From NCBI GenBank assembly GCA_964627245.1, contig CAZVGS010000001.1, forward strand, positions 89,256-153,255: 64,000 bases of DNA, in the 5' to 3' direction. This stretch comes from an uncultured Gammaproteobacteria bacterium (GTDB taxonomy: Bacteria > Patescibacteriota > Microgenomatia > Levybacterales > GWA1-39-11). Within the stretch, counting starts at the first letter, position 1. Each line of letters begins with the position of its first letter. The translations under genes and the position numbers were made by a program. Positions 5,969 to 20,279 of the stretch are shown here, piece after piece. A model generated the notes under the pieces. That model made no database searches, was not told where the DNA came from, and saw nothing but the letters and a program-made list of their open reading frames with translations.

Positions 5969-6264
5969 AACTATACGAAAAAGCAATAAAACAACTGGAG
6001 CGGGATAAACCTAAGGTAACTATTGAGGATAACACAGCCAAGAGAATAGAAATCCTGAACAAACTGTTACAGGCAGAATACGGATTCATTGAGCAGAACA
6101 AAGATGAAGTAACGAAAGAGCTGAAAGGACGGTTCAAAGAAACCCTGATAAATGAAGTACTTGAAGAGATTAAGAATCACAGCAATACCGGTAAAACACC
6201 GTACTATGTAGGACTACAGATCGCCAGCGATACGGTACAAAAACGAAAGGGAAAACAGCAATAA
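5965..6264 (+). CDS. hypothetical protein, 99 aa (Lys/Glu-rich, helical)
   Basis: ATGA overlap with the upstream ORF. Confidence 0.45.
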   Translation: MKLYEKAIKQLERDKPKVTIEDNTAKRIEILNKLLQAEYGFIEQNKDEVTKELKGRFKETLINEVLEEIKNHSNTGKTPYYVGLQIASDTVQKRKGKQQ

Positions 6265-6265
6265 T

Positions 6266-6613
6266 ATGAAACAAAATAAGACCATTTCCCCCTTAGAAGG
6301 AAATAATGAGGAAGCCGAACAGGCTACAAAAGAGATACGGTCAGGCAAGTCAGCTAGTGGAAAGAAATCTTCCCCCCCCGTTCCCCGTCCCCAACAAACA
6401 CCGTTTAAGATAAACAAACTCTCGGATATCCGCAAAGCAAGTAAGGTACTCATGACTGATTTAATCAACAAGGAGGGCAGGTTCACGGTTGCAGAAAGCA
6501 GAGTATTCAAGGACATGGCAGAGCTGTACTTTAAGGCGGAGGAGAACATTACAACCAAGAGACTAATGAATAAGCTGAAGAAAGAAAACGACACGGACAG
6601 AAAGGGGCGGTAG
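6266..6613 (+). CDS. hypothetical protein, 115 aa (basic)
   Basis: Starts immediately after the stop of the previous ORF. Confidence 0.45.
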   Translation: MKQNKTISPLEGNNEEAEQATKEIRSGKSASGKKSSPPVPRPQQTPFKINKLSDIRKASKVLMTDLINKEGRFTVAESRVFKDMAELYFKAEENITTKRLMNKLKKENDTDRKGR

Positions 6614-6760
6614 CGCAGGGGTATGGGTACTGAATAAACTGTACGGTATTTCAATGATGCTACACCACCCCCCACCTATACCTACACCCCGCGCGGTGGG
6701 ACACGGGTAAAGGGAGTGACATATAGAGGAAGTACTTAACGGTGTACAGAAGGTAACCCA

Positions 6761-7006
6761 TTGAAGCGAACTCTTATAAATTTTTTGGGAGATTTTTGTC
6801 ATAATAACTGTATGAATGATACCAACTTTCTAATTTCTCTGGCTATTGGTTTTGTTATATTTTTACTTTTTTCATTTAGTGGCCCAAAAACGCATCGCGA
6901 TCCATTCTATGGTGATATTGATAACATTTCGCATAGTATTGCTGTTGGATTGATCTGTATGGGGGCAACGTACAGTATTTTGCAAATTATTAGTAGTATG
7001 TTTTGA
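6761..7006 (+). CDS. small membrane protein (2 TM), start uncertain
   Basis: Hydrophobic helices LISLAIGFVIFLLFSF and IAVGLICMGATYSIL; lies in an AT-rich segment. Confidence 0.3.
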   Translation: MKRTLINFLGDFCHNNCMNDTNFLISLAIGFVIFLLFSFSGPKTHRDPFYGDIDNISHSIAVGLICMGATYSILQIISSMF

Positions 7007-7042
7007 TGTCCCAATTTGACAAAGATTGATTAGCACGATACG

Positions 7043-7399
7043 GTGTATAAGCTTGGTAAAGGATACTATGGCAGTATTCTAATCTACAAAGGAGCATCTC
7101 TCAGGAGGTGCTTTTTTGTGTCTATTTGGTATAATGAATTAATGGATTATAAAACTGCCAGTGAGCTACTTAGAGAACTTTCTCTACTTTGGATATGGGA
7201 AGCCGGAAACTATAATAATAAAATTCCATCCAACTTGCTTACCCGGGATCTTTGTTATTATGACCAGGCGTGCGACTATTTACGACGATTTCCTAAAACA
7301 GGTGATCTTGAACGTGTGGCCCTCGCTCAAATGCAGATGAATTACATTGACGATATTGAGGGGAATAATGAAATGGAAAAATTATTTTCCATCCTCTAA
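7043..7399 (+). CDS. hypothetical protein (118 aa as called; possibly starts at the internal Met, MDYKTASELL)
   Basis: ORF in an AT-rich segment. Confidence 0.3.
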   Translation: MYKLGKGYYGSILIYKGASLRRCFFVSIWYNELMDYKTASELLRELSLLWIWEAGNYNNKIPSNLLTRDLCYYDQACDYLRRFPKTGDLERVALAQMQMNYIDDIEGNNEMEKLFSIL

Positions 7400-7528
7400 C
7401 CTTTTAATTACATCAGCTCTTCTCTTCCGTACTTCATCAAGGAGTTTCTTACGTCTTTCACGGACTTCATTGTACATGGGTTTTACTACTACTCGTGGCT
7501 TTCTAAACTTCCCGTATTCAGTCATACG

Positions 7529-7822
7529 TTAGTACTCTCCTACGCGTTCAGCCCATTGAGGAGGTGTTCTTTCGTCCTCTTCGCTATGTAATTGAGTTTC
7601 AAATGATATTTTCGAGGCGTGTTCTATAGTGGAATCTTTACCTACTTCGCCACCTATTCCGAGTACGGTAATTCCTACTTTTCCGCCTCCCTTGTCACTC
7701 TTGGTAACTGCAATATCAAATTTAACGGAGCTTGAAACATAATTACCGCCAGTGTGAGCGTCCTTTATCTGCCTGAGGCTTTCTTGTATGAAGTCTTTTA
7801 GTTCGTTATTTTCGTCTGCCAT
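7529..7822 (-). CDS. small Gly-rich beta-type domain protein, 97 aa; reminiscent of Trypco2-like conflict-system domains (tentative)
   Basis: KFDIAVTKSDKGGGKVGITVLGIGGEVGKDSTIEH pattern; last gene of the minus-strand cargo operon. Confidence 0.4.
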   Translation of the reverse strand: MADENNELKDFIQESLRQIKDAHTGGNYVSSSVKFDIAVTKSDKGGGKVGITVLGIGGEVGKDSTIEHASKISFETQLHSEEDERTPPQWAERVGEY

Positions 7823-7823
7823 A

Positions 7824-8291
7824 TTATACGGTTACCTTCTTTTTCTTGAACCTTCTGTATCCTAAATATCCCAATCCCCCAAGTAGTGCCATTGCCACAA
7901 CCCCACCACCTCCACTATCTTCACTCGCTCCCTGAACGGCTATGGTTGGTGTAGGCTCTTTGGGCGAGGGTGTATTCGTGGGTTCATCCGTAGGTTCAGC
8001 GGTAGGAGTAGGAGTATTGGTAACAGCACGGGTTGGTATTCTCGAGGGTGCGGTTGTGTTTATCGGTGCAAATTGTTTTACGGGTGCGGTTGTTGCAACG
8101 GGTGCACTTTCAACCCTTTTTACGCTTCCGTCTGGGTTATGGTGGTGATATTCTCCAGAGCCTAAACCCCATTCTTCGCAATTAGTACGGCATCTATGAC
8201 CACCGCTCCCGTCGGTCCCTCCAGGATGGGCTTCTATAGGGGAAACAGATATATAGAAGAGCAGGGATAAGATAAGTAAAGTTTGATACAT
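7824..8291 (-). CDS. small secreted Cys/His-rich protein with PT-rich linker and C-terminal TM anchor
   Basis: Signal peptide MYQTLLILSLLFYISVSPIEA; GGHRCRTNCEEWGLGSGEYHHHNPDG; PT linker; C-terminal VVAMALLGGLGYLGYRRFKKKK. Confidence 0.55.
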   Translation of the reverse strand: MYQTLLILSLLFYISVSPIEAHPGGTDGSGGHRCRTNCEEWGLGSGEYHHHNPDGSVKRVESAPVATTAPVKQFAPINTTAPSRIPTRAVTNTPTPTAEPTDEPTNTPSPKEPTPTIAVQGASEDSGGGGVVAMALLGGLGYLGYRRFKKKKVTV

Positions 8292-8310
8292 TAACCAGTA
8301 TTATACTCCT

Positions 8311-10227
8311 TTAATCGTGCCAAATGTCATTACCTCTCGCATCCATACCTAACCACTGCTGAGATTTTTCTAATTCCTCACGCCAGTACCACCCGCCGGG
8401 AACTTTTTCTTCTGTCTTTTTCTTAATAGCTGGTTTCCGTGTTGGGGTCGGAGACGGAGCTTCAGTTGTTATCGGGCTAGGGGTAACTGATGGTATTGCG
8501 TTTACCGTTGCTACCGGAGAAAGAATTTCGAGAGCACTCACTTCTTTTATCTTTGTTGCCGAATCAAATAAATAGTAAGTAGTAAATCCAGATACAGTTG
8601 CAAATACAGAGATGAAAATAATGATTTGACTTACAGTGAGATAATTAGCTCTAATGTGTGAAAATGCATAATTAATCCGTTTTGATAGGGGTGGGATTTC
8701 ACTTAACCGTCTTTTGGTATTTCTCATCTGTACAACCAAAATAAACGTTATTATGAAATTCCAAAAAATCCAGAATTGAATAGAAAAATAATCAATATCA
8801 AATAAATGAATATCCCCTGTCCTTAGCCCAATCAGAATTAGAATAGTATAGAAAGTGAAATATATGGTTACAAACCGTGTCGTTTGTGAGAAAGCATGAG
8901 AGACAGATTTGTGTTTCGCGTTAGTTGAAACCCATCCGACAGATTTTTTGAACAATGCGGTTTTTACTGCGTGGGAATACGCATAAGTTCGAGCCATGAG
9001 AATTCCAAAATACCCGAATCGAAATTTAGCGACTGGGAATAACCACAGGTAAACAATTGCAAAAATTAAGTGAGGGTAAAAGAGCAAACTCTTACCGAGA
9101 GGAATATATTCATTGTATAAGAACAGTGTCCAAAAGAGATGGAAAGAGAAGAGGATCATCAAAGGGTGATGTAAATAGAACATAAACCCGGTAATAAAGC
9201 AGAATTTGGTTTTCCACGATGTCTTACCTTTCCAGAAAAATTTTGAAAGCATTAATCGCAAACTACCCATACACCATCTATGTTGTTGGTGGAAAAAGGC
9301 GTATTGATTATCCGGGCATAATCCAATAGATAGAAGTATCGGTACAAATAGAACCCTTAAACCTACTCTTGAAATAGCGTACCCAGTATGAGCATCTTCA
9401 CTGTATTCAATCTGATAGGGTCCGCCGATTGCCTCGATTGCACTTCTCCGATACAATGCACACGAACCACAGCATATAGCCCCCCCGAATCGACTTCTCG
9501 TCACTTGAATAAATCGGTAAAATGGCTCTTCGGCAAATGCTGCGTTATATGCGAATTTTGATTTTTTATATGCATTATCTGACAAATCAAAGTATTGAGG
9601 CGTTTGAACAATTCCGACAGTTGGATCATCCATATACGGGAGCGTTTCTTTTATAAAATCGGGATGGGGTGCGAAATCAGCATCAAAGATTGCGATAAAA
9701 TGACCATTAGACCTCTCAAAAGTATGTTTCAAATTTCCAGCCTTTTTCATATGTCCCTTATTCGGCCGTTCCATATAAACGAATCCAAAGTGTTGAGCCA
9801 ATTCTTTATGCGCCTCGAAATTTTCCTTCGAATCATCCAATACGTATACGGTTTTATTTTTATAGTTAATGTTTGATACGTGTTCCCAGGTATTTCTGAG
9901 TACGTCAACTTCTTCACCACAAATAGGCAAGAAAATATCAACGGGGGGTTCTTTGTCATATGATTTTACAAGTGCAAAGTGTTTCAGCAAGTCAAATTGA
10001 CGGTAAAACAAGTTAAGGCCAAAGCTGGCAAGGTGATAAATAGAGAGTAGTATAAAAATTGGAATGACAAAAAATGAATAAAACGGGTCTATCCCTATGA
10101 CGTTCCAGTACCCAAGCATAATCAAGATCCATGAGAAAATCCCAAATCCATACAGTAATCTAACTTTCCAGGTGGGAGTTTTTTCAATATACAGGTACTT
10201 ATTAATTGTCGAGGGGTTGGGGAGCAT
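8311..10227 (-). CDS. processive family-2 glycosyltransferase (cellulose/chitin/hyaluronan-synthase-like), multi-TM
   Basis: 638 aa; N-terminal TM helices, DD and DxD-type motifs (LDDSKEN, IFDADF), QQHRW (QxxRW) motif, C-terminal TM bundle, then a PT-rich tail. Confidence 0.8.
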   Translation of the reverse strand: MLPNPSTINKYLYIEKTPTWKVRLLYGFGIFSWILIMLGYWNVIGIDPFYSFFVIPIFILLSIYHLASFGLNLFYRQFDLLKHFALVKSYDKEPPVDIFLPICGEEVDVLRNTWEHVSNINYKNKTVYVLDDSKENFEAHKELAQHFGFVYMERPNKGHMKKAGNLKHTFERSNGHFIAIFDADFAPHPDFIKETLPYMDDPTVGIVQTPQYFDLSDNAYKKSKFAYNAAFAEEPFYRFIQVTRSRFGGAICCGSCALYRRSAIEAIGGPYQIEYSEDAHTGYAISRVGLRVLFVPILLSIGLCPDNQYAFFHQQHRWCMGSLRLMLSKFFWKGKTSWKTKFCFITGFMFYLHHPLMILFSFHLFWTLFLYNEYIPLGKSLLFYPHLIFAIVYLWLFPVAKFRFGYFGILMARTYAYSHAVKTALFKKSVGWVSTNAKHKSVSHAFSQTTRFVTIYFTFYTILILIGLRTGDIHLFDIDYFSIQFWIFWNFIITFILVVQMRNTKRRLSEIPPLSKRINYAFSHIRANYLTVSQIIIFISVFATVSGFTTYYLFDSATKIKEVSALEILSPVATVNAIPSVTPSPITTEAPSPTPTRKPAIKKKTEEKVPGGWYWREELEKSQQWLGMDARGNDIWHD

Positions 10228-10232
10228 ACGAA

Positions 10233-10532
10233 CTAGTTACCACCATTTCGTACACGGGACACAAAATCTCTAATTCTTTGTTGAAAGTCATTGTTATATT
10301 CTTTGAATTCTGGATTACGAACAGCTTTACAGCTTGGATAAGAAATTTGTCGATTAAATGGAAGTTCGCGTGTTACAGTCTGACAAACAATAGTTACAGG
10401 TGTATGAGGATTATCATAAATTGGCGGTGTTACTCCACCTCCACCATAAGCAGAAGCTGTTGGAACGTTAAATAAGAATACGGAGAGAATAAATGTGAGT
10501 ATAAATAACTTTTTCATCCTTAAAAGCATCAT
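10233..10532 (-). CDS. small secreted protein, 99 aa (possibly starting at the internal MKKLF)
   Basis: Signal peptide ...FILTFILSVFLFNVPTASA; first gene of the minus-strand cargo operon. Confidence 0.5.
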   Translation of the reverse strand: MMLLRMKKLFILTFILSVFLFNVPTASAYGGGGVTPPIYDNPHTPVTIVCQTVTRELPFNRQISYPSCKAVRNPEFKEYNNDFQQRIRDFVSRVRNGGN

Positions 10533-10544
10533 AACAGATGCATC

Positions 10545-10572
10545 TTATAATATCAATACCCATTTCTTACAA
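10545..10572 (-). promoter_or_regulatory. candidate promoter for the minus-strand cargo operon (TTGTAA-N16-TTATAA)
   Basis: Reverse complement reads TTGTAAgaaatgggtattgataTTATAA just upstream of the ATG at 10532; AT-rich divergent control region. Confidence 0.3.
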
Positions 10573-10586
10573 TATTTTAATTTTTG

Positions 10587-10609
10587 AAAACTTGACTTCC
10601 TGTCCGTTA
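10587..10609 (+). promoter_or_regulatory. promoter/operator-like motif AAAACTTGACTTCCTGTCCGTTA (copy 2 of 2)
   Basis: Near-identical to 4840-4862; precedes the second plus-strand gene block. Confidence 0.35.
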
Positions 10610-10684
10610 GTACGATAGGGTTTCATCATAAGCTAAACAGCCAAGCACTAGCACTTAGCGACTAATCGTATTTTCGAGAGGTCG

Positions 10685-10730
10685 CTTTTTTTGTGGCTGG
10701 AATGTTGAAAAGCGGGGGTTCCTCCTTCAA
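10685..10730 (+). promoter_or_regulatory. bipartite conserved element CTTTTTTTGTGGCTGGAATG ... GTTCCTCCTTCAA (copy 1; copy 2 at 17196-17247)
   Basis: Both halves recur in the same order and spacing upstream of the 17336 ORF; preceded by an AGCGAC/GTCGCT inverted repeat. Confidence 0.3.
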
Positions 10731-10789
10731 CAAGGGGTCCATAATGCCCCCGCCTTTGAGCCTTTCAGTTAAATGATACAAGGTTAAAT

Positions 10790-11062
10790 ATGAAGAAAGT
10801 AAGCAGAAACAATTTATACAGAGAGATAGACAAATTATTCCTTTGGTTAATTCAGTTACCCGATACTGATGCCGATGAGGATAAGTCTTTGCGTGAAATT
10901 CAGAAACATCTTGTCAGGTTATCAAATCTGAAAAGTGAGGAATACACTCAGGAAGCTCCTGAACAGCCGGAACAACCGCAACAGCAGGAACCGCAAAAGC
11001 CGTTAACCGATATGCAACGAAAAATTATGAGCGGGGAAATCTCGATAGGAGGACAGGAATAA
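10790..11062 (+). CDS. hypothetical protein, 90 aa (acidic, PEQPEQPQQQ repeat)
   Basis: First ORF of the second plus-strand block; the next gene starts 2 nt after its stop. Confidence 0.45.
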   Translation: MKKVSRNNLYREIDKLFLWLIQLPDTDADEDKSLREIQKHLVRLSNLKSEEYTQEAPEQPEQPQQQEPQKPLTDMQRKIMSGEISIGGQE

Positions 11063-11063
11063 A

Positions 11064-12101
11064 ATGGCTTGGGGCGAACAGGGACAGAAAATTACATGGA
11101 CACCGAACGTAGTTTCAGACGATAAGAAACAACACGGCGGATGGTATGACAATCCTTCAACGGGATATAACCAACGGTGGTACTCAGGCGGTGCAACCAG
11201 TGAAAACGGTAACTCTTCCTCTAGTGGCTTCTCAATTCCTCAACCTGATATGGAAGCAATCAATCGGGAGTATCAGCCTATTTATGAGAATTATGCCCGT
11301 GATGAGCAGTTCTTAAAAGAATCCCAGGCAAGTGAGCAGGAAATGCTTAATGACAATTTTACTCTTGCCGATACCCGACTTGATAGGAATAAAACGGAGC
11401 GCGAGTTACACAACAAGGAACAGGAAACTACACTTAATAATCAATACCGCTCAGCGTACGAGGAAGTAGTACGCGCACAGAACGCATTAACACAGCAGGG
11501 AAATGTACGATTCGGAGGCACATCTTCAGCGGGTCGGGCTATGGGAGAAATCGCACAAAGTGAATTCTTCCGACAGTCAGGAAAAATACAGAATACCCAT
11601 CTTGAGAATATAGGCAGAATTCAGTCCGATTGGAGAAAATATCTTTCTTGGCATGCGGACGAAGAGCAAAGACTGGTCCAGGAGAAAAGACACGAAACCA
11701 CAAAACTTCAAAACACGTACAAACAGATGTATGTTCAGATTGCAAATAACCGTAACATCACAAAATCAGAACAGGCACGGGCACAGCGCAACGCTCAGGA
11801 AACATACCAGGCACGTAAGGCAGACCTTGAGAACTCTATCAAACTCAGACAGATGGCAATGGATGAGTACGCCCAAAAACTCAGAATGGAACTTGATGCG
11901 CAAATTGAGTTAGCGGGTAAAACAGCCTATTCGGTATCGGATAACACGTTTGCAAGTGATACTCAGTCAGATGTTGACGGTGTAAGTTATGTTCCTTCCG
12001 AGAACGGCAGTCTTATGAATATGAATACCAGTTATGTAAATCCGTTCGCACGCGCACGATACAGCGATGATGAATTTGAGGATAATCCTTATTTCGCTTA
12101 A
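11064..12101 (+). CDS. hypothetical Gln/Asn-rich coiled-coil-like protein, 345 aa
   Basis: Long ORF with coding-like composition and no recognisable catalytic motif. Confidence 0.5.
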   Translation: MAWGEQGQKITWTPNVVSDDKKQHGGWYDNPSTGYNQRWYSGGATSENGNSSSSGFSIPQPDMEAINREYQPIYENYARDEQFLKESQASEQEMLNDNFTLADTRLDRNKTERELHNKEQETTLNNQYRSAYEEVVRAQNALTQQGNVRFGGTSSAGRAMGEIAQSEFFRQSGKIQNTHLENIGRIQSDWRKYLSWHADEEQRLVQEKRHETTKLQNTYKQMYVQIANNRNITKSEQARAQRNAQETYQARKADLENSIKLRQMAMDEYAQKLRMELDAQIELAGKTAYSVSDNTFASDTQSDVDGVSYVPSENGSLMNMNTSYVNPFARARYSDDEFEDNPYFA

Positions 12102-12106
12102 TAACT

Positions 12107-15100
12107 ATGGAATTAAAATCACTGCTCAGAGACGTTTCACGCCGTTATAACGAATATAACCGTAAACAGAAAAAACCACGCATACAGCCGAGTCTTATTG
12201 AAGATGTCGGGAACCGATTCCGCTCATTCGTAAAAGAACAGTCTCAGGAAGGCCAACCGCTCCACAAAATAACCCGCACCATTCAGGAATTACCGTTAGT
12301 TACACAACGCGAAGTAGATGAGGTCGGGACCCGCTTTCGCTCTTTCGTGGATGAAAGACAAAAAAATGTTGATGATGTGGGTAAACGATTCGGGGAATTC
12401 AAAGTAAAGGCTTCTCAGTTTTCAAAGGATTATGACCCGTTCAACTTTGATGAAAAAGCCCCGATAAATCAGCTTCCCGTTCTCGGCGATATCCGCAGAA
12501 CATTACAGCCGTATACAAATCCTTATAAATTAGGTCCTATGGAACTGATGCGCAGAAATACGGAACTCATGCAAAAAGAGAGTAAAGGAATTGCATTGAC
12601 CGATGAGGAAAAGGAATTTCAGAAGTATTACATGACCGAACAGGCTTCTATGGTTATGCCGATGGGTACGGTCGGTAAAGTGGCAAAACCCGCATTAACC
12701 GCATTGCAGAAAGAAGCCGTAAAGAAATTACCTAAAATACTCTATGAATTTGATGCTAAGACCGCAAACAAGGTAATTGATGAAGCAAAAGGAGCCTCTA
12801 AAGAATGGGTTGATGAATTCAAATCATGGGTAAATACCAGAGCATCCGCACAGCTTCAGGGACTGAATCAGCGGATGAAATTCAAGGATATGGATTCTGA
12901 GGGAATTGCAGGTATTTTTAAGTTCCAGGCAGGAGACAAGACGGGACGGTTTGCCGATGTGAAGAAATTTTTTGATTCCCGCTATTCAGAACTTCAGAAA
13001 GCAGGAGTTGAATTCAGATATAAACAGGAGTATCTACCGCAACTATGGCTTAATTCAAAAGAAGAGGTTGAGGAACGGCTCGGACGAACTCTTACTTCCC
13101 GTCCTTCCTTCTCTCTTCGATCAGTAATTGAGAATTATCAGAAAGGAATAGCTAACGGACTAAAACCGCGCTTTCAGACATTATCGGAACTTATCGGATG
13201 GTATGAGGCAAAAACGGCCAAAGTTATAGCGGATCAGAATTTTTACAACTACATGAAGAAGGCAAAGTATATTCTTCCTGAGGATACGGCTCCTGCATGG
13301 TGGAAAACGATAGATTCCGAGAAGTTTCCGAAGTTCACGGTTAAAGTAGGTTCGGAGGTTAAGAATCTGAACTATAAAGCTGAGGGAAGAATTGCGGATG
13401 CTATTAACAATTATCTTAATGACCCTGAAGGAGCATTACCAGCTTTTGCTGACTTTGCCACGAAGGTTAAGAATCTGGGATTATCGGCAGGCGTACCCCA
13501 TACTTCAATTAACTTTCACGGCTATAACATCTTCGTCCGTTCGGTCCTGGCAAGTAATAACCCCGTATCTTCTATTTTCAGAACAGGCCAATGGATGCTT
13601 AAACCCAAAATTGCGGAACGGTTTGTTATGAATAACCTTGAGGATGCGCAGTATTTTGTTAAAAACGGCATGACCATGAGTACCGAGGATTACGGACTGT
13701 TCGAGGCGGTTGAGAAGGTTAAAAAAAGCGGTGTAATTAATAAGACATTAGATAAATATGAGGAATGGTTCGGGGACCCTCTGTTTAAGAAATCCCTTCC
13801 CGCAATCAAAATTCAGTATACCCGCGCATTGTTTGATGATTTACTCAAAACATTGCCTGAAGAGGAAGCGGTAAAGATAGCCGTAAAAAGCGCAAATGAT
13901 GTATTCGGGGGAATTAATTTGAATGAACTGATGCGCAACAAACAAACACAAAATGTACTCCGTTCCGTTCTGCTCGCGCCAGACTGGGCTGAGTCTACAA
14001 TCAGAATGGGTAAAGGAATTGTTAAAGGAGTTGCCAACCCGTTAAGCCCCGAGTACAAAGCATACCGTACTTTTGCCAAAAACATGGTATTCGGGTATAT
14101 CACGGCCAACGTTGTGAATAAAGCTCTGTCAGGTCACTGGATGTTTGAAAATGAAGGTAACAATAAATTCAATATTGATACCGGTACATATACGGGAGAC
14201 GGTAAGAAACGGTACTTCAGAATCTGGGGTACGGCCGTTGATTTTGCCAGACTTCCTGTTGATATCGTTAACGGTCTCTCAAAAGGCGATCCGTCAGCAT
14301 TTGTCAGAACCTTCACTAACCGCTTATCCATGCCTGTAGGTTCAGCAGGACATTTACTATTCAATAAAGATTATCTCGGACGGCCCGTATACGGAAAAGA
14401 CCAATGGGGAAATGAAATCGACCCTATACAGTCAGCAGGAGGCATAACAAATGAAGTATTACGCGGTGTCGGAACTCCTACTCAGGTAATGGCGGGTATT
14501 GATTTACTTACAGGGCGTTCAAATCCCGAACAGGCTCTTGCTCAGTCACTTGAACTTCCGATGCGATATCAGGGAGGAGCAAGCTCGGACACACAGAAAA
14601 GAAGAAATGCAGCGTTTCAGTCTCTCGGCTTTGAAGGCGAAGCATTAGCCCGCGAAATGGAGAGAACAAAGGGTATGAGATATTCGGGAAGTCAGGGAGA
14701 AGAAAAGTCACTGCTTGACCATATCGGAGAAAAGTTCATGAGCGTATTCGGTAAGAAAGAACCTAACAGACCTCAGCCGAATGACCCGCTTACAAAGGCT
14801 TTTCTTGCGGATATCGAAAAGGATGAGAATGCTACCCGTGTAAGAGAAGTATTCAAATTAGGTTTAAGCAAGGAACAGACAGAACAGTTACTTGAAAAGG
14901 AAGGATTAGGTACGTATGAAGAAGCTGAATTGATAATTATGAAAGCTCTCGGTGTTGAGAACGGAACTCGTGGAAATTACATTCAGGAGATTACAAAGGG
15001 AATGGATGATGAAAGTAAAGAGGCCACTCTTTCCTATCTGGCCGAGAACGAAATTCTGACTACCTCAGTTATATCCCAATGGGTTGATGACGGGGAAATA

Positions 15101-15391
15101 ACAGACGAGGAAGCCGATTATCTGAAGGACCTGATTAAAAAAAGTAAAGGAACGTACAAAGGTCCGAAGGCAAAAGGCGGTAAGAAAGCGGGCGCAAAGA
15201 AAGTAACGGCAGGAAGTATCCCGACAATTAAGATTCCTACTTTTGCGGGCGGTACGGTTAAGAGTGTCAGCAAGGCATATTACAAACCGATACCAAAGAT
15301 TACCTATGAAAGACCTACGCCTACTTCAAAACAAAAAGTATCAGCTCCGAAGCCTGAGACTAATTTTAAATCATACGGAGGGAACAACTAA
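12107..15391 (+). CDS. large hypothetical protein, 1094 aa, with N-terminal repeats [DE][DE]VG-x-RF-x-[SE]F and a Lys-rich C-terminus
   Basis: Repeats DVGNRFRSFV / DEVGTRFRSFV / DDVGKRFGEF; C-terminal KAKGGKKAGAKK; could be an ejection/pilot, tape-measure-like or DNA-associated protein. Confidence 0.55.
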   Translation: MELKSLLRDVSRRYNEYNRKQKKPRIQPSLIEDVGNRFRSFVKEQSQEGQPLHKITRTIQELPLVTQREVDEVGTRFRSFVDERQKNVDDVGKRFGEFKVKASQFSKDYDPFNFDEKAPINQLPVLGDIRRTLQPYTNPYKLGPMELMRRNTELMQKESKGIALTDEEKEFQKYYMTEQASMVMPMGTVGKVAKPALTALQKEAVKKLPKILYEFDAKTANKVIDEAKGASKEWVDEFKSWVNTRASAQLQGLNQRMKFKDMDSEGIAGIFKFQAGDKTGRFADVKKFFDSRYSELQKAGVEFRYKQEYLPQLWLNSKEEVEERLGRTLTSRPSFSLRSVIENYQKGIANGLKPRFQTLSELIGWYEAKTAKVIADQNFYNYMKKAKYILPEDTAPAWWKTIDSEKFPKFTVKVGSEVKNLNYKAEGRIADAINNYLNDPEGALPAFADFATKVKNLGLSAGVPHTSINFHGYNIFVRSVLASNNPVSSIFRTGQWMLKPKIAERFVMNNLEDAQYFVKNGMTMSTEDYGLFEAVEKVKKSGVINKTLDKYEEWFGDPLFKKSLPAIKIQYTRALFDDLLKTLPEEEAVKIAVKSANDVFGGINLNELMRNKQTQNVLRSVLLAPDWAESTIRMGKGIVKGVANPLSPEYKAYRTFAKNMVFGYITANVVNKALSGHWMFENEGNNKFNIDTGTYTGDGKKRYFRIWGTAVDFARLPVDIVNGLSKGDPSAFVRTFTNRLSMPVGSAGHLLFNKDYLGRPVYGKDQWGNEIDPIQSAGGITNEVLRGVGTPTQVMAGIDLLTGRSNPEQALAQSLELPMRYQGGASSDTQKRRNAAFQSLGFEGEALAREMERTKGMRYSGSQGEEKSLLDHIGEKFMSVFGKKEPNRPQPNDPLTKAFLADIEKDENATRVREVFKLGLSKEQTEQLLEKEGLGTYEEAELIIMKALGVENGTRGNYIQEITKGMDDESKEATLSYLAENEILTTSVISQWVDDGEITDEEADYLKDLIKKSKGTYKGPKAKGGKKAGAKKVTAGSIPTIKIPTFAGGTVKSVSKAYYKPIPKITYERPTPTSKQKVSAPKPETNFKSYGGNN

Positions 15392-15393
15392 TT

Positions 15394-15579
15394 ATGAATA
15401 AAAAGTGTCTTACATGCGGGACGGAATTACAGAAACGAAAACATGAAAGCCGGGCAAGATTTGAAAAAAAGCAGTTCTGTACGGCCGAACATGCCAGGAC
15501 ACATATGAAGGAAACAGGGCGTGGCTGGTGGAATCCGGAATTTGATAGAGGAAAACTCAGAGCAAAGGGGGTGAATTAA
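15394..15579 (+). CDS. zinc-ribbon protein, 61 aa (CLTCGTE...CTAEH)
   Basis: CxxC plus C/H pair; strong SD upstream. Confidence 0.45.
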   Translation: MNKKCLTCGTELQKRKHESRARFEKKQFCTAEHARTHMKETGRGWWNPEFDRGKLRAKGVN

Positions 15580-15581
15580 AT

Positions 15582-15776
15582 ATGAACAAAGACCAATTAA
15601 GAGATGAAATGCAACAGGTAGCTTATGACACTATTCGGGGCGTTTCAGGACAACAGGTAAACGAGATTGATTACAAGAACGCGCTTGTATCAAAAACTCA
15701 GGAAGTCGTTGACGGAGCATATCAGCTCGGTTATAACGCGGGCTTTGAGGCGGGCAAAAACGCGCCACAAGGTTAA
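15582..15776 (+). CDS. hypothetical protein, 64 aa
   Basis: SD AAGGGGGTG upstream; coupled to the preceding ORF. Confidence 0.45.
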   Translation: MNKDQLRDEMQQVAYDTIRGVSGQQVNEIDYKNALVSKTQEVVDGAYQLGYNAGFEAGKNAPQG

Positions 15777-15808
15777 GAAATATTAAAAATGAAAGGAGGT
15801 GTAAAAAT

Positions 15809-16201
15809 ATGATTCGCAGAGATAAAACAAATTACGATCCTAACAAGGATAAATACAACTGGACGAACGACATGTACCGACAGGATGAGCTTTCTAACAG
15901 GGATTTAGAAGAACAGAAAGCGATAATCAATAACTGGCAGGCTATGAGTGAAAGTAAAAATGAAGCTGAAAAAGCCGAATGGGAACTGAACAGAAGAATT
16001 GCAGCGGTTACCGAAACGGATAATGCAGACATCAGACAGAAAGAGGCAATTAAGAGATACAAAATAGCCCAAAAATATGACGAGATAATCCGTAGCAAAA
16101 TGACAAGAGGCCAGACAGAGGAAGAATTTGAAGAAGAACGTCATGAATACGGAGCATTGCATCGCAGGGCTTTAAAAGAGGCTATGCGGTCAATTGAATA
16201 A
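15809..16201 (+). CDS. hypothetical charged helical protein, 130 aa
   Basis: SD AGGAGGTG, 8 nt upstream of the ATG. Confidence 0.5.
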   Translation: MIRRDKTNYDPNKDKYNWTNDMYRQDELSNRDLEEQKAIINNWQAMSESKNEAEKAEWELNRRIAAVTETDNADIRQKEAIKRYKIAQKYDEIIRSKMTRGQTEEEFEEERHEYGALHRRALKEAMRSIE

Positions 16202-16553
16202 TATGAGGGACGAGAAATGTATTGAATGCAGTGAGCAATTCACGATTACGGAAAGTGAACAATCATTTTATGTAAAGATGGGGTTCTTTCTTCCGAAAAG
16301 ATGCGCTGATTGCAGAAGAAAAAGAAAAGCTCAATTCGGGCAGGAAAGGAGGTTTAACTTAATGAATAATTCAAAACTTACAACATCAAGAATTACAAAG
16401 GCCACGAAGCAGGAAGCACCTAAAAATGCTATAGATTTTGCTTCTGACCAGAGAAAGGGAGTAACCAACTCTCAGGCTCCTGAAATTCGTGCGAATAACG
16501 GAACCATCTCTAGCAACGGCGGACGGTTCGGCGGATTCCTTAAGAACCGCTAA
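16194..16553 (+). CDS. zinc-ribbon protein, 119 aa; paralogue-like to ORF 5210-5509
   Basis: CIECSEQFTITESEQ ... CADCRRKRK; shares the C-x-E-C-x-[DE]-x-F-T-[LI]-T motif. Confidence 0.5.
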   Translation: MNNMRDEKCIECSEQFTITESEQSFYVKMGFFLPKRCADCRRKRKAQFGQERRFNLMNNSKLTTSRITKATKQEAPKNAIDFASDQRKGVTNSQAPEIRANNGTISSNGGRFGGFLKNR

Positions 16554-17043
16554 CGGTAATTGGAGGGCAGGTTGTTGTTCGTGAGTTCAAACGGAAACGA
16601 GCAGTTTCCGGGTAATGTGTTCCTCATGAGCAACGCTCTGTCCTTCAGGACGGAATGGCTTACAGCCTGAGATTTCATAGCTCTCAGTCAACACCAACGG
16701 GCGGAGCGGGTAAAGAATGTGCAGGAAAATCAGTCTCACAATAATAACTTTACCTGCCCGCTACGAAGTGCATACTCTACGGCTCTGTAATGCCTCAAAA
16801 ACGAGAGGAAATGCCTGAATCATACACATATACCATTAACGGGGTAAGACACGAAAAACGAAACTATACGGCCTTCTGGACCATAGATGAATAATAAATA
16901 TATTATGTATGTACAGGCACATAATTAGTTAAGATAACAGTAATTACTTAACGTACTATAAGCTTGACAAGTCACTTCCAGCATGATACAAATAATATGT
17001 AGCAATAAAAAAGCTATCGGGTAATAAGTGTTTGAGCAAATGA

Positions 17044-17112
17044 CCCTTTTCGGGTGCTGTTGTTCTAACTGCTTCAAACACGGCACAGCACTACCCGAAA
17101 GGGGTTTTTTAT
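17044..17112 (+). terminator. rho-independent terminator (long imperfect hairpin plus T-run)
   Basis: CCCTTTTCGGGTGCTGT ... ACAGCACTACCCGAAAGGGG followed by TTTTTTAT. Confidence 0.5.
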
Positions 17113-17195
17113 TGGCTTACTACTAGCCCTATTAGTAGTGCACATACGGTAGAGGCAATCAGATGAATCGCGTAAAAGCGGAAAATCGGTTGTCT

Positions 17196-17247
17196 CTTTT
17201 TTTGTGGCTTGAATGAGGGGAATCGTCAGCGCGTTCCTCTCCTTCAA
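17196..17247 (+). promoter_or_regulatory. bipartite conserved element CTTTTTTTGTGGCTTGAATG ... GTTCCTCTCCTTCAA (copy 2)
   Basis: See 10685-10730; lies about 90 nt upstream of ORF 17336. Confidence 0.3.
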
Positions 17248-17335
17248 TTCGCAAGAATTGAGGTAAGTAGTTAAGTCCTTTGTCTGGCTGGCATTTGCTT
17301 CTTTGTCAGTCAGTCAAAGCATTTAAGGAAAGGGG

Positions 17336-17608
17336 GTGAAAATTATGGACAAAAGTAACGAAAACAACCTATGCAATCATTCATTCGGCGAAATAACTGA
17401 ATCAACTGACGGAGTATTTTTTATTGACTGTGAACTTTGCGAAAAGAGAGTAAGAATGACTGATGAACAGTCTGAAGAATTCATGAAATTTAGAGAAAGT
17501 ATGTGTCAGAAATGCAAATCGAATACGGCCGATTGCGGTGATTTATGTAAACGTTGTGACGGTATTTACAAAATTTTAGAGGCTACAAGAACGGAAGAAT
17601 CATGGTAA
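17336..17608 (+). CDS. Cys-rich (multi-CxxC) zinc-binding small protein, 90 aa
   Basis: CNHSF...CELCEKR...CQKCKS...CGDLCKRCDG; strong SD AAGGAAAGGGGGTG. Confidence 0.5.
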   Translation: MKIMDKSNENNLCNHSFGEITESTDGVFFIDCELCEKRVRMTDEQSEEFMKFRESMCQKCKSNTADCGDLCKRCDGIYKILEATRTEESW

Positions 17609-17689
17609 GAGCTGAGAGTTTGTGAGTTTTGCCTGGAGTGGTCCCGGATCACTTCAGACAAAGAACATAAGAGAAGGAGGTGTATTAAT

Positions 17690-18106
17690 ATGGAACACAA
17701 AATATTTAATAAAAAGCATGGATTTACGCAGATTGAAAACTGTATTCTGCGCAGTTCTGTTTTAAGCCAGTCAGCAAAGTTGGTTTATGCTGACCTCGTT
17801 TCTTATGACTTTAATAGTAAAGGAGTTTTCCCGGGACAAGACAGAATGGCATGGGATTTGAGAATGTCACTTAGAACCATCATCCGCGCAATTAAAGAAC
17901 TGGAATCCTGGGGTTTGATAACCGTTGAGCGAAGGGGTAGGAACAAACCCAACTTTTACATTATTGAAGAGGTCCCCCAGAAATTAAAAGATATGTTCAA
18001 CTTTACCCAGCTCGAATGGAAAATACAAAAGGATATGTCACCGGAACAAAGAGCTGAAAGAAACAAAGTTGTGAAAAAACAATGGAAAGAATTCGGCTGG
18101 ATTTGA
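17690..18106 (+). CDS. winged-helix DNA-binding protein, phage/plasmid replication-initiator or regulator-like
   Basis: 138 aa; LSLRTIIRAIKELESWGLITVERRGRNKPNFYII resembles wHTH initiator/regulator domains; SD AGAAGGAGGTG; followed by direct repeats. Confidence 0.5.
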   Translation: MEHKIFNKKHGFTQIENCILRSSVLSQSAKLVYADLVSYDFNSKGVFPGQDRMAWDLRMSLRTIIRAIKELESWGLITVERRGRNKPNFYIIEEVPQKLKDMFNFTQLEWKIQKDMSPEQRAERNKVVKKQWKEFGWI

Positions 18107-18108
18107 GC

Positions 18109-18143
18109 GGGATGTGACAAATGGGATACTTCAGGATGTGACA
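18109..18143 (+). repeat. two direct copies of GGATGTGACA, 25 bp apart (iteron or operator-like)
   Basis: 18109-18118 and 18134-18143, immediately downstream of the wHTH gene. Confidence 0.3.
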
Positions 18144-18345
18144 CCAGAGTAACCGAAGAATACTAAGATCTAATAATACTAAGTCTCACACTCACTCGCT
18201 TTCGCTCGCTCGTTGGCGCAGCAGAAATAATTGTTTTACCACGAATGATTACTATTAAGTTTTCTTTCGAGGCTTTTCTTATTCTCGGCTATAACGACAA
18301 GAGGTTTTCGCTTATCATTAACTCTCACAAAAATGATCAATAGTG

Positions 18346-18422
18346 TTGAGTATATAAGATAAAAGTGCTATATTGTATATATCTTTTCTGATAGAACGTG
18401 AGAGGTTCTACTTACTCACGTT
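18346..18422 (+). promoter_or_regulatory. candidate promoter (TTGAGT-N17-TATATT) followed by a perfect 8-bp inverted repeat AACGTGAG-N12-CTCACGTT (operator-like) ahead of the small-ORF/recombinase operon
   Basis: -35 at 18346-18351; -10 at 18369-18374; inverted repeat at 18395-18422 ends 1 nt before the ATG at 18423. Confidence 0.35.
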
Positions 18423-18560
18423 ATGACTATTCAGGAAAAAGAACAATTAAAAAATTTACCTCCCTTACCTGAAGAGGTTGAAGCTAAATTGCGTGCATTC
18501 GTTAATCTGATTATCGACCGCGTGCAGGAAGAACAGGCCAAGGGGGTAGTAAAAAAATGA
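18423..18560 (+). CDS. small ORF (45 aa) translationally coupled to the recombinase; candidate directionality factor or accessory protein
   Basis: MTIQEKEQLKNLPPLPEEVEAKLRAFVNLIIDRVQEEQAKGVVKK; its TGA stop overlaps the recombinase ATG (ATGA); below the ORF-track size cutoff. Confidence 0.3.
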   Translation: MTIQEKEQLKNLPPLPEEVEAKLRAFVNLIIDRVQEEQAKGVVKK

Positions 18561-20233
18561 AGTATCAGGCAGTTGCTTTACTCCGTGTATCATCGACAAA
18601 ACAGGGCCTTCAGGGCGATTCTCCAGACGACCAAAAAGTTCAGATTATAATCAAGGCTTCCACCTTCAACATCTTACCCGAACAGATTAAATTCTTTAAG
18701 CTCATACAGTCAGCATCGGGCGAAATTCAGCCCGCACAGGACGTTATAGACTTCTGTAAAACAAATCAGGTTGAATACTGCTTTATTAAATCCATTGACC
18801 GATTTACGCGCGGTGGTGCCGATTTTTATCCATATCTTAAGAATCAACTTATAAAAGTAGGTGTTCAGTTAGTAGATGTATTCGGTGTGATCAATCCGAC
18901 AGAAGTGAATACTCTTGAACATCTCGGAATGTCATTCAAGTGGAGCAAATACCACCCTTCCTATACCTCCGAATTACTGGAAGCCGAACGCGCAAAGTCT
19001 GAGGTCCGGGATATTCTTTCCAGACTTATCGGGGCGGAAATCCGTTATATCCGTATGGGTTATTGGGTAGGTCCACCGCCACAGGGATTAGTTACCGATA
19101 AGATAGAGACTGACTTTGACGGAAAAAGAACAATTCTTTCCCCTGACCCGAAGCGAAGCATCTTCTTTAAGCGGATGTTTGAACTTCGCGCTCAGGGTAA
19201 TCTTACCGACCATGAAATAGTTACCGCAATCAATGAAATGGGATATAAATCCCCTGAAAGACGAAGAAGAAAGAGCAAGCACGACCCGACCGTTATCGGA
19301 ATAATCGGTGGTACGCCGTTAACCTGCAAGCAGATGAGAAACTTTATCGAAAACCCCATATACGCGGGAATAATCGTTCACGGATTCTCACAATTCAAGC
19401 CCGTAAAAGCGAAGTTCGAAGGACTTGTGAGTGTTGGTACATGGAACAAGGCCAATAGAGGCAGAGCTACAATCGTAACAGACGGAGATACGATCAGAAT
19501 TCTCAGACAGGAACCTGAATCGTGGCAATTAACCAAGCAGAAGCAGAATCCTGAATTTCCGTACAGGGAGTTCGTATTATGTTCTGAGTGTAAACACCCG
19601 CTGAAAGGTTCATTCTCTACCGGGAAACTCGGCAAAAAGTATCCGGGATATCATTGTTCGCTCAGACATAAGCTTTATAGAATCCCGAGGAAGGACTTTG
19701 ATAAAACCATAGAGAAATTTGTATCAGAGGTAAAGTTCTCCGACCGATTCAAACTATATCTCAAAAAGTACGCGCTTGAGGAAATGGAGAAACGAAGAAT
19801 GCTTGCGGTTGATGATTCGCTGCATTTCCAACAACTCACGGCAAACCTGACGGCCGAGAAAAAACTAATCCTTGAGAAAGTGAAAATCCTCTCAAATCCT
19901 CTCATGCTCAAAGAACTTGAAAAACAGCTTGAAGATGTGGAGGCAAAGCTTATTCAGGCCAAGCAGAAGCGCAATAATAAGGAAGAAGCTGAGGTTCAAA
20001 TTGACACTTTAATTGCACATGCGAATTATTACATGGAACACCTCAAGGAATTACTCTTTTCAGGCACGAATCCGATACGGGACGCGGAGTTTTTCAGCCT
20101 GTTATTTGAAGAATTACCTACCTATAAAGAACTGGAGGATGGAACACCTAAATTAGATTGTCTGTTCAGGCTAAATGAAGCATTCAATACGCCTCAAAGT
20201 GATGTTGTGAGCGGCCAGGGACTCGAACCCTGA
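18557..20233 (+). CDS. large serine recombinase (phage-integrase type)
   Basis: 558 aa. N-terminal resolvase-type catalytic motif (ALLRVSSTKQG), central recombinase domain, Cys-containing zinc-ribbon region (CSECKHP...YHCS) and C-terminal coiled-coil region. Its 3' end overlaps tRNA-Lys. Confidence 0.85.
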   Translation: MKYQAVALLRVSSTKQGLQGDSPDDQKVQIIIKASTFNILPEQIKFFKLIQSASGEIQPAQDVIDFCKTNQVEYCFIKSIDRFTRGGADFYPYLKNQLIKVGVQLVDVFGVINPTEVNTLEHLGMSFKWSKYHPSYTSELLEAERAKSEVRDILSRLIGAEIRYIRMGYWVGPPPQGLVTDKIETDFDGKRTILSPDPKRSIFFKRMFELRAQGNLTDHEIVTAINEMGYKSPERRRRKSKHDPTVIGIIGGTPLTCKQMRNFIENPIYAGIIVHGFSQFKPVKAKFEGLVSVGTWNKANRGRATIVTDGDTIRILRQEPESWQLTKQKQNPEFPYREFVLCSECKHPLKGSFSTGKLGKKYPGYHCSLRHKLYRIPRKDFDKTIEKFVSEVKFSDRFKLYLKKYALEEMEKRRMLAVDDSLHFQQLTANLTAEKKLILEKVKILSNPLMLKELEKQLEDVEAKLIQAKQKRNNKEEAEVQIDTLIAHANYYMEHLKELLFSGTNPIRDAEFFSLLFEELPTYKELEDGTPKLDCLFRLNEAFNTPQSDVVSGQGLEP

Positions 20234-20279
20234 ACCGATTCCTTAAGAGGGAATTGCTCTACCATTGAGCTAGCCGCCC
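20208..20279 (-). tRNA. tRNA-Lys (anticodon CTT)
   Basis: Hand fold: acceptor GGGCGGC/GCCGCTC (one G-U), D arm GCTC-AATGGTA-GAGC, anticodon loop CTCTTAA, T arm CAGGG-TTCGAGT-CCCTG; no encoded CCA; the 3' 26 nt lie inside the recombinase ORF. Confidence 0.75.

Follow-up and report, generated by a model that had tools for sequence, protein, structure and literature searches.

The window analysed here, a stretch of 64 000 nucleotides of DNA, contains a ∼10 kb element whose largest gene encodes a protein of 1094 residues, and the locus raises the question of what a protein of this size contributes to so small an element. The initial annotation had described the gene as the largest of the element, which an ORF check confirms, and had proposed a genome-ejection/pilot, tape-measure-like or DNA-packaging scaffold function. 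The analysis described below suggests that it is probably a virion-internal protein that is ejected into the host, an assignment drawn from synteny, from domain fusions and from similarity of its fold to predicted structures. The chances appear evenly balanced that it is, more specifically, an effector-less podophage protein of the ejection/polyvalent type residing in a satellite-like element that borrows the capsid and tail of a helper. The features of the element are listed in Table 1.

Table 1. Features of the element, in window coordinates.
Feature	Residues	Nucleotides	Strand	Basis or remark
90-residue protein, first gene of the operon		10790..11062	+	42% identity to the gene at the same position in L001
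345-residue partner, disordered Q/N-rich ends flanking a long three-helix coiled coil		11064..12101	+	AF2 model
1094-residue large protein		12107..15391	+	ATG start; predicted internal-virion/ejection-type protein
Three-motif region, [DE][DE]VG-x-RF-x-x-F		12200..12400	+	Pattern match
Motif 1, EDVGNRFRSF	32-41	12200-12229	+	
Motif 2, DEVGTRFRSF	71-80	12317-12346	+	
Motif 3, DDVGKRFGEF	89-98	12371-12400	+	
Conserved ∼600-residue core, mostly α-helical, family-defining	227-830	12785..14596	+	Alignment, profile search, AF2
Basic, Pro/Gly-rich C-terminal tail	1010-1094	15134..15388	+	Net charge +18
Small genes (61, 64 and 130 residues), 3' of the large gene		15394..16201	+	61- and 130-residue genes conserved with L001
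119-residue treble-clef zinc-finger protein (zf_Tbcl)		16194..16553	+	Pfam PF13451, 37.5 bits
138-residue HTH_36 protein		17690..18106	+	Pfam PF13730, 40 bits; phrog_270, phrog_186
558-residue large serine recombinase (integrase), at the end of the element		18557..20233	+	phrog_95, E 2.6e-31; Pfam Recombinase
tRNA-Lys(CTT), directly adjoining the element, with an overlap into the end of the recombinase ORF		20207..20279	-	ARAGORN, Rfam

The N-terminal region of the large protein contains exactly three occurrences of the pattern [DE][DE]VG.RF..F, all within residues 32-98, in agreement with the triplicated motif reported initially. Two or more copies of the six-residue core of the motif were obtained in only one of 20,000 shuffles of the protein. 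The positions of the motifs are kept in the closest homolog, P0001 (residues 34, 75 and 93), and the motifs are recognizable in the homolog P0012, while the three copies are only 46-58% identical at the DNA level; judged from these comparisons, the triplication is therefore old and selected and not a recent duplication. The shorter pattern [DE][DE]VG.RF is present in one of the 150 best family members, and by this distribution the triplication is confined to the sub-clade of the window protein. The helical hydrophobic moments of the motif 14-mers are 0.68, 0.53 and 0.41, compared with a protein-wide median of 0.29 and a 95th percentile of 0.54. At the other end of the protein, what had been noted as a Lys-rich tail is more generally basic: the last 85 residues contain 23.5% Lys and Arg and 22% Pro and Gly, with a net charge of +18. 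A basic tail is common to the family, with a median net charge of +13 over the last 80 residues of 150 members. No Pfam or PHROG family matches the protein at E<=0.1, with the exception of one sub-threshold match to a DUF, which bears out the earlier statement that it lacks enzyme motifs; neither resource shows a lytic transglycosylase domain. No signal peptide was found and no transmembrane helix is predicted, with no 19-mer exceeding a Kyte-Doolittle mean of 0.95.

The large gene lies in an operon of 90-, 345-, 1094- and 61-residue genes, which are all intact and tightly packed. The stop codon of the 90-residue gene, whose product has no family match in Pfam or PHROGs, is 1 nt before the start of the gene for the 345-residue partner, and the stop codon of the latter is 5 nt ahead of the start of the large ORF. 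The partner and the large gene together span 4,328 bp and the partner contains 17.4% Gln and Asn, as anticipated in the initial description of a Q/N-rich protein forming a pair of about 4.3 kb. The AF2 model of the partner (pLDDT 65.7, pTM 0.38) places helices at residues 63-150, 155-227 and 234-286. No match to the partner was found in Pfam, PHROGs or the PDB, where a profile search returned sub-threshold SH3 and coiled-coil matches only; a scaffold-like role of this coiled-coil protein is possible. A partner-type gene is located upstream of the large gene in most related loci. The BLAST cluster of the window partner (C1) comprises nine loci and is homologous to a second cluster, C17 (hhalign probability 97%, E 8e-11); the partner of PolA-type phages (C8) has no detectable relation to C1. 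The partner is not universal among the loci of the family. Downstream of the large gene, the 61- and 130-residue genes are 54% and 65% identical to genes that occur in the same order in L001, and homologs of the zf_Tbcl protein follow the large gene in L002 and L023. The HTH_36 protein is similar to the N-terminal domain found in replication initiators and in DnaD-like loaders.

The helical core of the large protein defines a family that word-indexed homolog searches largely miss. Such searches returned only seven relatives, whereas an exhaustive profile search recovered 4,464 representatives of 50%-identity clusters at E<=1e-3; the apparent rarity of the family was therefore rejected as an artefact of the word-indexed search. 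An alignment of eight sequences contains 74 invariant columns in the core, and many of the invariant residues are polar (Asn, Asp, Arg and His). Outside the core, the members have variable N-terminal extensions and basic tails. No match was found when the window core and three divergent phage-borne members were compared by tblastn with 50,697 phage records, nor any relative in 72,556 plasmid records (tblastn) or in two scans of 185,579 GTDB species representatives. The family is large, uncharacterized and metagenome-only.

The initial annotation had proposed structure prediction followed by a Foldseek search, and this yielded matches among viral polyvalent proteins and none in the PDB, in which sequence searches with the core were equally negative. 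The AF2 model of the core, calculated from the eight-sequence alignment, is of moderate quality (pLDDT 68.6, pTM 0.69). The only proteins with a related fold, all in BFVD, are annotated as 'large polyvalent protein associated domain' and come from uncultured Caudovirales; there are 28 matches at E<=1e-3 and the best has E 1e-11 and TMq 0.56, the alignments having a high r.m.s.d. of about 10 Å. A few of the 32 long members carry effector-type domains identified by Pfam, namely ART-PolyVal (two members, best E 1.2e-9), RelA_SpoT, a DUF6782 or SprT-like metallopeptidase, ParB_N and HNH. Each type is rare, occurring in one or two of the 32, and the domains are fused N-terminal to the core. Among the five longest members, one contains HATPase_c and four contain no Pfam domain. 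All of these effector types (ART-PolyVal, RelA_SpoT, metallopeptidase, ParB_N, HNH and HATPase_c) are listed for injected polyvalent proteins (PMC5512222). The window protein itself has no effector domain recognizable by Pfam.

All contexts examined for the family are phages or integrative elements, and no conjugation genes were seen. In the phage relatives, the large gene is co-oriented with the capsid, adaptor and tail genes of the late structural operon and is the last gene of an SU10/T7-like module consisting of capsid protein, adaptor, nozzle-like protein, partner and large protein. In L019 the order is SU10_MCP (82.7 bits), an SU10-type adaptor (cluster C4), a nozzle-like protein (C2), small genes and the large protein; in L008 and L021 it is tail fibre, adaptor (46.9 bits), C2, the virion structural protein C5, partner and large protein. 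L007 has an adaptor (47.9 bits) two genes downstream. A slot in the late operon after adaptor/nozzle and smaller proteins was encountered in L007, L008, L014, L019, L020 and L021. In SU10, the major capsid protein gp9, adaptor gp11, nozzle gp17 and needle gp18 precede the ejection proteins gp20-24 (PMC9509320), and by analogy the end of the late module corresponds to the position of the ejection ('pilot') proteins. As such proteins diverge quickly in sequence, they are usually equated with one another by size and synteny (PMC8954989). The genome-ejection/pilot function proposed initially is thus supported by the slot in phage loci, the polyvalent-like fold of the core and the effector fusions.

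The setting of the window copy is different. The gene pair lies within the serine-recombinase element adjoining tRNA-Lys, which also carries replication and regulatory genes and is flanked by host-like GT2 genes. The recombinase is full length, with additional sub-threshold matches to Resolvase and Zn_ribbon_recom, and the Rfam matches are tRNAs only. A search for att sites gave no convincing direct repeats and, at the left end, no partial copy of the tRNA, as expected for a serine recombinase, and the left boundary can consequently be placed only approximately, between 10228 and 10789. Searches with Pfam and PHROGs detected no capsid, portal, terminase or tail gene in the element and no virion gene across the 64 kb window; the element also lacks a primase, and tblastn with all of the small-element proteins revealed no terminase remnant in it. 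The pair is the only candidate structural module, as initially stated, but this statement is incomplete in that the element, having none of these genes, could not build a particle alone.

Related elements share this organization. L002, L003, L004, L013 and L023 likewise combine a serine recombinase and replication genes with the gene pair, and at least six independent small elements have a common architecture with different replication modules. In a neighbor-joining tree the large-protein copies of the small elements form one clade, with L023 as an outlier; on this tree, the window copy belongs to a clade of capsid-less elements of 10-16 kb. The relative L013 (IMG/VR contig 3300020192_000784) is a closed genome of ∼16.3 kb, with a 238 nt end overlap of 97.9% identity, and a circularly permuted contig from a second sample agrees with it. 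Besides the gene pair it carries genes for a primase-helicase, for a TerL split into two ORFs (265 and 209 residues) and for a serine recombinase, and neither a capsid nor a portal gene was found. L020, a type-A podophage, shares its source sample with L013. These closed ∼16 kb genomes are classed as viral by IMG/VR. The TerL of L013 is absent from the window element, which counts against the satellite idea. Restriction-modification systems lie directly upstream of the gene pair in L001 and L024. Comparison of the small elements, at a dS of about 0.12, gave dN/dS values of 0.25 (large gene) and 0.11 (partner), and by this measure the pair is under purifying selection.

Comparison with known systems shows where the resemblance begins and ends. 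In T7 gp16-type proteins the C-terminus is basic and carries predicted transmembrane helices. The podovirus ejection proteins (T7 gp14-gp15-gp16, SU10 gp20-24 and P22 gp7/gp16/gp20) are resembled in that, in the phage relatives, a large helical protein comes last after the adaptor and nozzle genes, in the mid-sized helical partner that precedes it and in the basic C-terminus (+18 in the window protein). Unlike them, the window protein has no transglycosylase domain or predicted transmembrane helices and sits in an element without virion genes, and neither sequence nor structure searches link its core to a solved ejection protein, those of the T7 type included. T7 gp16 consists largely of helices and needs its basic C-terminus for infectivity, and the presence of a transglycosylase domain differs from phage to phage, also among accepted gp16 analogues (PMC8954989). 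Polyvalent proteins are defined by two or more domains of disparate activity, shared noncatalytic LPD modules and linkage to late or conjugative genes (PMC5512222). The family shares with them the linkage to virion late genes in the phage relatives, the fusions of some members to ART-PolyVal, RelA/SpoT, zincin-like peptidase, ParB or HNH domains, and a core whose only fold relatives are LPD-annotated, a likeness that may or may not lie in the LPD part of the matched proteins. However, the core matches no Pfam LPD model, most long members have no Pfam domains and the window protein, having no recognized domain, is not itself 'polyvalent'. Large helical regions are also found in giant ejected proteins such as the virion RNA polymerase gp50 of phage N4, where they serve encapsidation and injection (PMC5512222), although the window protein has neither a polymerase module nor detectable homology to gp50.

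The element itself can be compared with phage satellites (P4-like, PICI, cfPICI, PLE and PICMI), in which hallmark genes such as Sid, Psu and Delta of P4, those of PICI and PLE and the capsid set of cfPICI are known. It resembles them as an integrative element in the 10-16 kb class with its own integrase and replication genes and an incomplete virion set, and one of its relatives has its own terminase. It differs in integrating by a large serine recombinase, in the lack of hallmark gene names among the Pfam and PHROG matches of the elements (these being general models) and in that the retained 'virion' genes are of the ejection type rather than capsid-remodelling or small-terminase genes; dependence on a helper is putative. 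No known satellite family has been reported in the literature to carry ejection proteins, which likewise weighs against the satellite proposal.

Taken together, the 1094-residue protein may be described as a minimal, effector-less member of the internal-virion ('ejection' or 'pilot', polyvalent-type) family of short-tailed phages, with three putative parts: a lineage-specific N-terminal region with amphipathic DVGxRFxxF motifs, the helical core and a disordered basic tail. The large protein and its coiled-coil partner would be loaded into the procapsid, would leave through the portal and tail before or together with the DNA and would help to build or extend a conduit across the cell envelope, where the basic tail may touch the incoming DNA. 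We propose a satellite-like element because the window copy sits in a clade of elements without capsid, portal or tail genes; the capsid and tail would come from a helper podophage and the ejection proteins from the element. That the element is a helper-dependent satellite is a tentative proposal, to which we assign somewhat less than an even chance. A bolder and rather doubtful version would make these elements a new family of podophage satellites of 10-16 kb, which integrate by serine recombinases, hijack helper capsids and carry their own ejection pair and, in some cases, their own split TerL, with the core as a carrier module for protein injection. Such satellites would themselves control the delivery of their genome and possibly its packaging.

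The pair could instead be what is left of a podophage late operon in a decayed prophage, immobile and either nonfunctional or domesticated by the host. The window element, with no terminase, primase or virion gene and no att repeats, would fit such a remnant, and with no relatives among the 185,579 GTDB representatives persistence in lineages is not demonstrable. We nevertheless consider decay improbable: at least six independent elements with one architecture, differing replication modules and large-protein copies in a single clade are hard to reconcile with it, as are the closed circular or concatemeric relative with permuted forms in two samples, the purifying selection on the pair, the intact and tightly packed ORFs of the operon and the full-length recombinase. 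A similarly low probability is given to a role outside the virion, whether superinfection exclusion, a decoy poisoning the ejection apparatus of related incoming phages, or replication, partition or DNA transfer. In elements unable to form particles the pair is the sole conserved cargo, the restriction-modification systems next to it in L001 and L024 recall a defence island, and the invariant polar residues of the core could reflect catalysis. Against this, the phage copies lie within the late structural operon and run in the same direction as its capsid, adaptor and tail genes, Pfam and PHROGs give no match to an enzymatic or defence family, and the terminase of L013 points to encapsidation.

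Autonomous minimal viruses, with a particle built by the large protein and partner, are very unlikely. The closed ∼16 kb genomes are viral according to IMG/VR and the pair is their only large conserved gene set, but in relatives the protein coexists with the HK97-type SU10_MCP and is thus not the capsid protein there, the transmembrane segment or signal peptide that a spike should have is missing, the partner is a plain coiled coil in the AF2 model, and the TerL of L013 implies a portal-containing capsid that L013 does not encode. A tape-measure or head/packaging scaffold protein, as initially considered, would also be long, largely helical and variable in length among homologs. However, tape-measure genes lie between the tail-assembly chaperone and the distal tail or baseplate genes of long-tailed phages, and the recognizable phage contexts are all of the short-tailed type, with adaptor and nozzle-like genes and no tail-tube, tail-chaperone or distal tail genes. 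A core of 600 residues in which 74 columns are invariant does not resemble the low-complexity helices found in tape measures, no tape-measure or scaffold family is matched in Pfam or PHROGs and candidate scaffold genes are found elsewhere, upstream of the capsid gene in L019, so that both suggestions are highly improbable for the 1094-residue protein. Only its size and repeats would suggest a host surface adhesin or another cellular protein unrelated to mobile elements; a protein with no signal peptide or transmembrane segment, with exclusively phage or integrative-element contexts and absent from the GTDB representative genomes, makes this scarcely credible.

The reading of the large protein as an ejected virion component would give meaning to more than 4,000 clusters at 50% identity around a core for which neither Pfam nor PHROGs has a model and no structure has been solved. 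With the core recognized as a likely carrier of ejected/polyvalent proteins, many uncultured short-tailed phages would gain an annotation for one of their largest genes. Should the element prove to be an ordinary remnant, the protein would be a new member of a fast-evolving class of ejection proteins. To our knowledge, the satellite strategies described to date all work through capsid remodelling, redirected packaging or the theft of tails. If the proposal is true, satellites equipped with ejection proteins of their own would represent a strategy apart from all of these and would raise the question of whether the ejection proteins select the DNA to be delivered or act to exclude the helper.

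The ATG-initiated open reading frame encodes a protein of 1094 residues and is the biggest gene between the host-like flanking genes. Both it and the three motif copies described in the initial annotation were recovered: [DE][DE]VG.RF..F occurs at residues 32–41, 71–80 and 89–98, and its six-residue core reached at least two copies in just one of 20,000 shuffles of the protein. In the closest homolog, P0001 (58% identity), the three copies occupy matching positions, and in the homolog P0012 they are still recognizable. The DNA of the three copies is only 46–58% identical, so the triplication, limited to a small sub-clade, is old and has been kept by selection. The motifs would be strongly amphipathic if helical (hydrophobic moments of 0.68, 0.53 and 0.41; protein-wide 95th percentile 0.54) and may serve as an interaction or membrane motif. 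The C-terminal 85 residues are Pro/Gly-rich with a net charge of +18. No transmembrane segment was predicted and no match was obtained in Pfam, PHROG or PDB-sequence searches.

A word-indexed protein search returned only seven homologs. These share a core of ∼600 residues (227–830 of the window protein), in which 74 columns are invariant. The sequences N-terminal to it are unrelated, and the tails that follow it are basic and loosely alike. When the core alignment was used as an HMM in an exhaustive search, 4,464 cluster representatives matched at E ≤ 1e-3 and 848 at E ≤ 1e-30. The family is large rather than rare, and the word-indexed search (7 versus 4,464) badly underestimates family size for phage proteins that evolve fast. 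N-terminal extensions ahead of the core range from 0 to about 1,400 residues, and a basic tail is typical (median net charge of +13 over the last 80 residues of the best 150 members). At BLAST sensitivity the family is metagenome-only: neither the window core nor any of three divergent members had a match in 50,697 deposited phage genomes, and 72,556 plasmids gave no family match. No relative was found among GTDB species representatives.

The AF2 model of the core (pLDDT 68.6, pTM 0.69) is mainly helical with one small β-insertion; the core is therefore not a portal, capsid or tail protein, nor a recognizable relative of the solved T7-type core proteins. In BFVD, a collection of predicted viral structures, 28 entries match the core at E ≤ 1e-3. 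The top matches come from uncultured Caudovirales and are labelled 'large polyvalent protein associated domain' (E 1e-11, TMq 0.56); the remainder include proteins with RelA/SpoT, zeta toxin, ART or methylase annotations. Consistent with these matches, ART-PolyVal, RelA_SpoT, metallopeptidase (DUF6782, SprT-like), ParB_N or HNH domains lie N-terminal of the core in a few of 32 long family members. Domains of the ART, RelA/SpoT, metallopeptidase, ParB and HNH types are typical effectors of polyvalent proteins, a class believed to be carried in the virion and injected together with the DNA (PMC5512222). The window protein is a minimal member without an effector domain.

The 345-residue partner ends 5 nt upstream of the large gene, and partner homologs precede that gene in most loci. 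Partner cluster C1 is related to C17 (hhalign 97%); the C8 partner of PolA-type phages shows no detectable relation to C1. The partner has no database match, and its AF2 model consists of three very long helices with disordered ends. Its N-terminus holds a conserved GGWYDNPxTGxNQRW motif, predicted as a β-hairpin, with sub-threshold SH3 matches (E 0.4). The C-terminus of the neighbouring host-like GT2 protein contains VPGGWYWREELEKSQQWLG; this may be a binding motif shared with the partner or a coincidence.

A late-operon order recurs around the large gene in IMG/VR and metagenome contigs. In L019, an SU10-type major capsid protein (82.7 bits) and SU10-type adaptor cluster are followed by a ∼650-residue tail/nozzle-like protein (PHROG matches to head closure, tail appendage and internal virion protein), small genes and the large protein. 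L008/L021 carry a tail fibre, adaptor (46.9 bits), nozzle-like protein, virion structural protein, partner and large protein. The adaptor of L007 (47.9 bits) lies two genes downstream, a divergent primase/PolA/methylase module follows in L011, L015 and L016, and L005 has a CHAP endolysin and a tail-fibre-like gene. This order mirrors that of SU10, in which capsid gp9, adaptor gp11, nozzle gp17 and needle gp18 lie ahead of ejection proteins gp20–24 (PMC9509320), as well as T7 gp11–gp16. Ejection proteins are matched through size and synteny, and gp16 is largely helical with a required basic C-terminus (PMC8954989, a review). Thus, the genome-ejection/pilot function first proposed for the 1094-residue protein is supported chiefly by its late-operon position in phage relatives, that is, by position and analogy and not by homology.

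The window's copy of the large gene is not located in a phage. Its element is bounded by host-like glycosyltransferase genes (≤10227 and ≥20763), and the large serine recombinase ORF at its end overlaps tRNA-Lys(CTT). Its only products besides the partner and large protein are small proteins, one treble-clef zinc-finger protein and one HTH_36 replication-initiator-like protein; neither the element nor the rest of the window holds a capsid, portal, terminase or tail gene. A conserved sequence lies ahead of each operon. Its 24-nt core, GTCKCTTTTTTTGTGGCTKGAATG, is identical at 22 of 24 positions, and each copy continues into a GGGG...TCCTC(T)CCTTCAA stretch. The sequence could act as a promoter or operator common to both operons, or as a terminator–antiterminator element; a sigma-70 scan did not flag it. 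A stretch lacking longer ORFs contains a peptide conserved with L001, so a small unannotated gene, origin or RNA may lie there. Upstream of the element there may be a further foreign island.

Features of the window and of related loci (L numbers)
Sequence	Position (strand)	Feature
Window	1–20000	G+C 0.41–0.43, versus 0.34–0.39 over 20000–47000
Window	227–4809	ORFs (e.g. 971–2449, 492 aa) with no Pfam or PHROG family
Window	8311–10227 (-)	Host-like GT2 protein
Window	10681–10730	Conserved sequence before operon starting at 10790
Window	11064–12101 (+)	Partner
Window	12107–15391 (+)	1094-residue protein
Window	16553–17336	780 bp without ORF ≥60 aa
Window	16575–16667	Peptide conserved with L001 (54% over 33 aa, tblastn)
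Window	17192–17250	Conserved sequence before operon starting at 17336
L001	219–2440	R-M cargo (cytosine methylase, restriction enzyme, Vsr) directly upstream of small-gene/partner/large-protein operon
L024	688–3186	R-M cargo, as in L001
L002	2389–2592	Weak homolog of the L004 S21-like gene
L004	4301–4498	Ribosomal protein S21-like gene (Pfam PF01165, precomputed)
L025	3654–5258	Serine recombinase region compared with L027
L027	13372–14101	Most of recombinase gene replaced; 180-aa ORF remains
L030	12005–13183 (-)	TnpB RNA-guided nuclease (E 8.7e-69 to PDB 8h1j)

The same architecture of serine recombinase, variable replication module, partner and large gene is repeated in L002, L003, L004, L013 and L023; L001 and L024 are incomplete contigs. 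In a neighbour-joining tree of the core, indicative only as it lacks bootstrap values, the small-element copies group into a single clade nested among those of phages, L023 being an outlier. The two ends of the 16,505-bp IMG/VR contig 3300020192_000784 (L013/L030, IMGVR_UViG_3300020192_000784) overlap by 238 nt (97.9% identity), and a contig from another sample is its circular permutation. This closed genome carries, in order, genes for the partner, the large protein, a prim-pol and a D5-type helicase, then small genes, a TerL in two ORFs (ATPase, 265 aa; nuclease, 209 aa), the serine recombinase gene and an inserted gene for TnpB, leaving no space for a capsid or portal gene. The TerL split recurs in three samples (L013/L030, L025 and L027) and is therefore a genuine two-gene or frameshifted form and not a sequencing error. 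The TnpB gene sits in a ∼1.3-kb insertion between recombinase and partner genes that is missing from L025 and L027. L027 has an imperfect ∼40-nt repeat at the contig end and at ∼1160; its replaced recombinase gene suggests a copy that is immobilized or uses another recombinase. Between 94–96%-identical copies, dN/dS is 0.25 for the large gene and 0.11 for the partner. These observations point to maintained, mobile, packaging-competent elements that lack a capsid.

Five rival, less likely explanations were ranked. The first takes the element for a prophage remnant; the window element does lack every virion gene sought, and the closed relative and the dN/dS values point to maintenance. Next comes a non-virion role, such as excluding related phages, and after it an autonomous minimal virus. 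A tape measure or scaffold ranks fourth; the tape-measure-like and DNA-packaging scaffold options of the initial annotation were not supported. A cellular protein ranks last.

The observations comprise the size of the family, its fold relatives, the gene order in phages, the domain fusions, the lack of capsid genes around the window's copy and the selection on the pair. The 1094-residue protein is most likely a virion-internal, ejected protein of the podophage type. It would reside in the virion and be ejected, perhaps as a conduit or DNA escort, and the element may be a satellite that depends on a helper. A literature search found no precedent for capsid-less integrative elements that keep ejection-type proteins, in some cases with TerL. 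The 1094-residue protein is a new, unmodelled branch within a known functional class.
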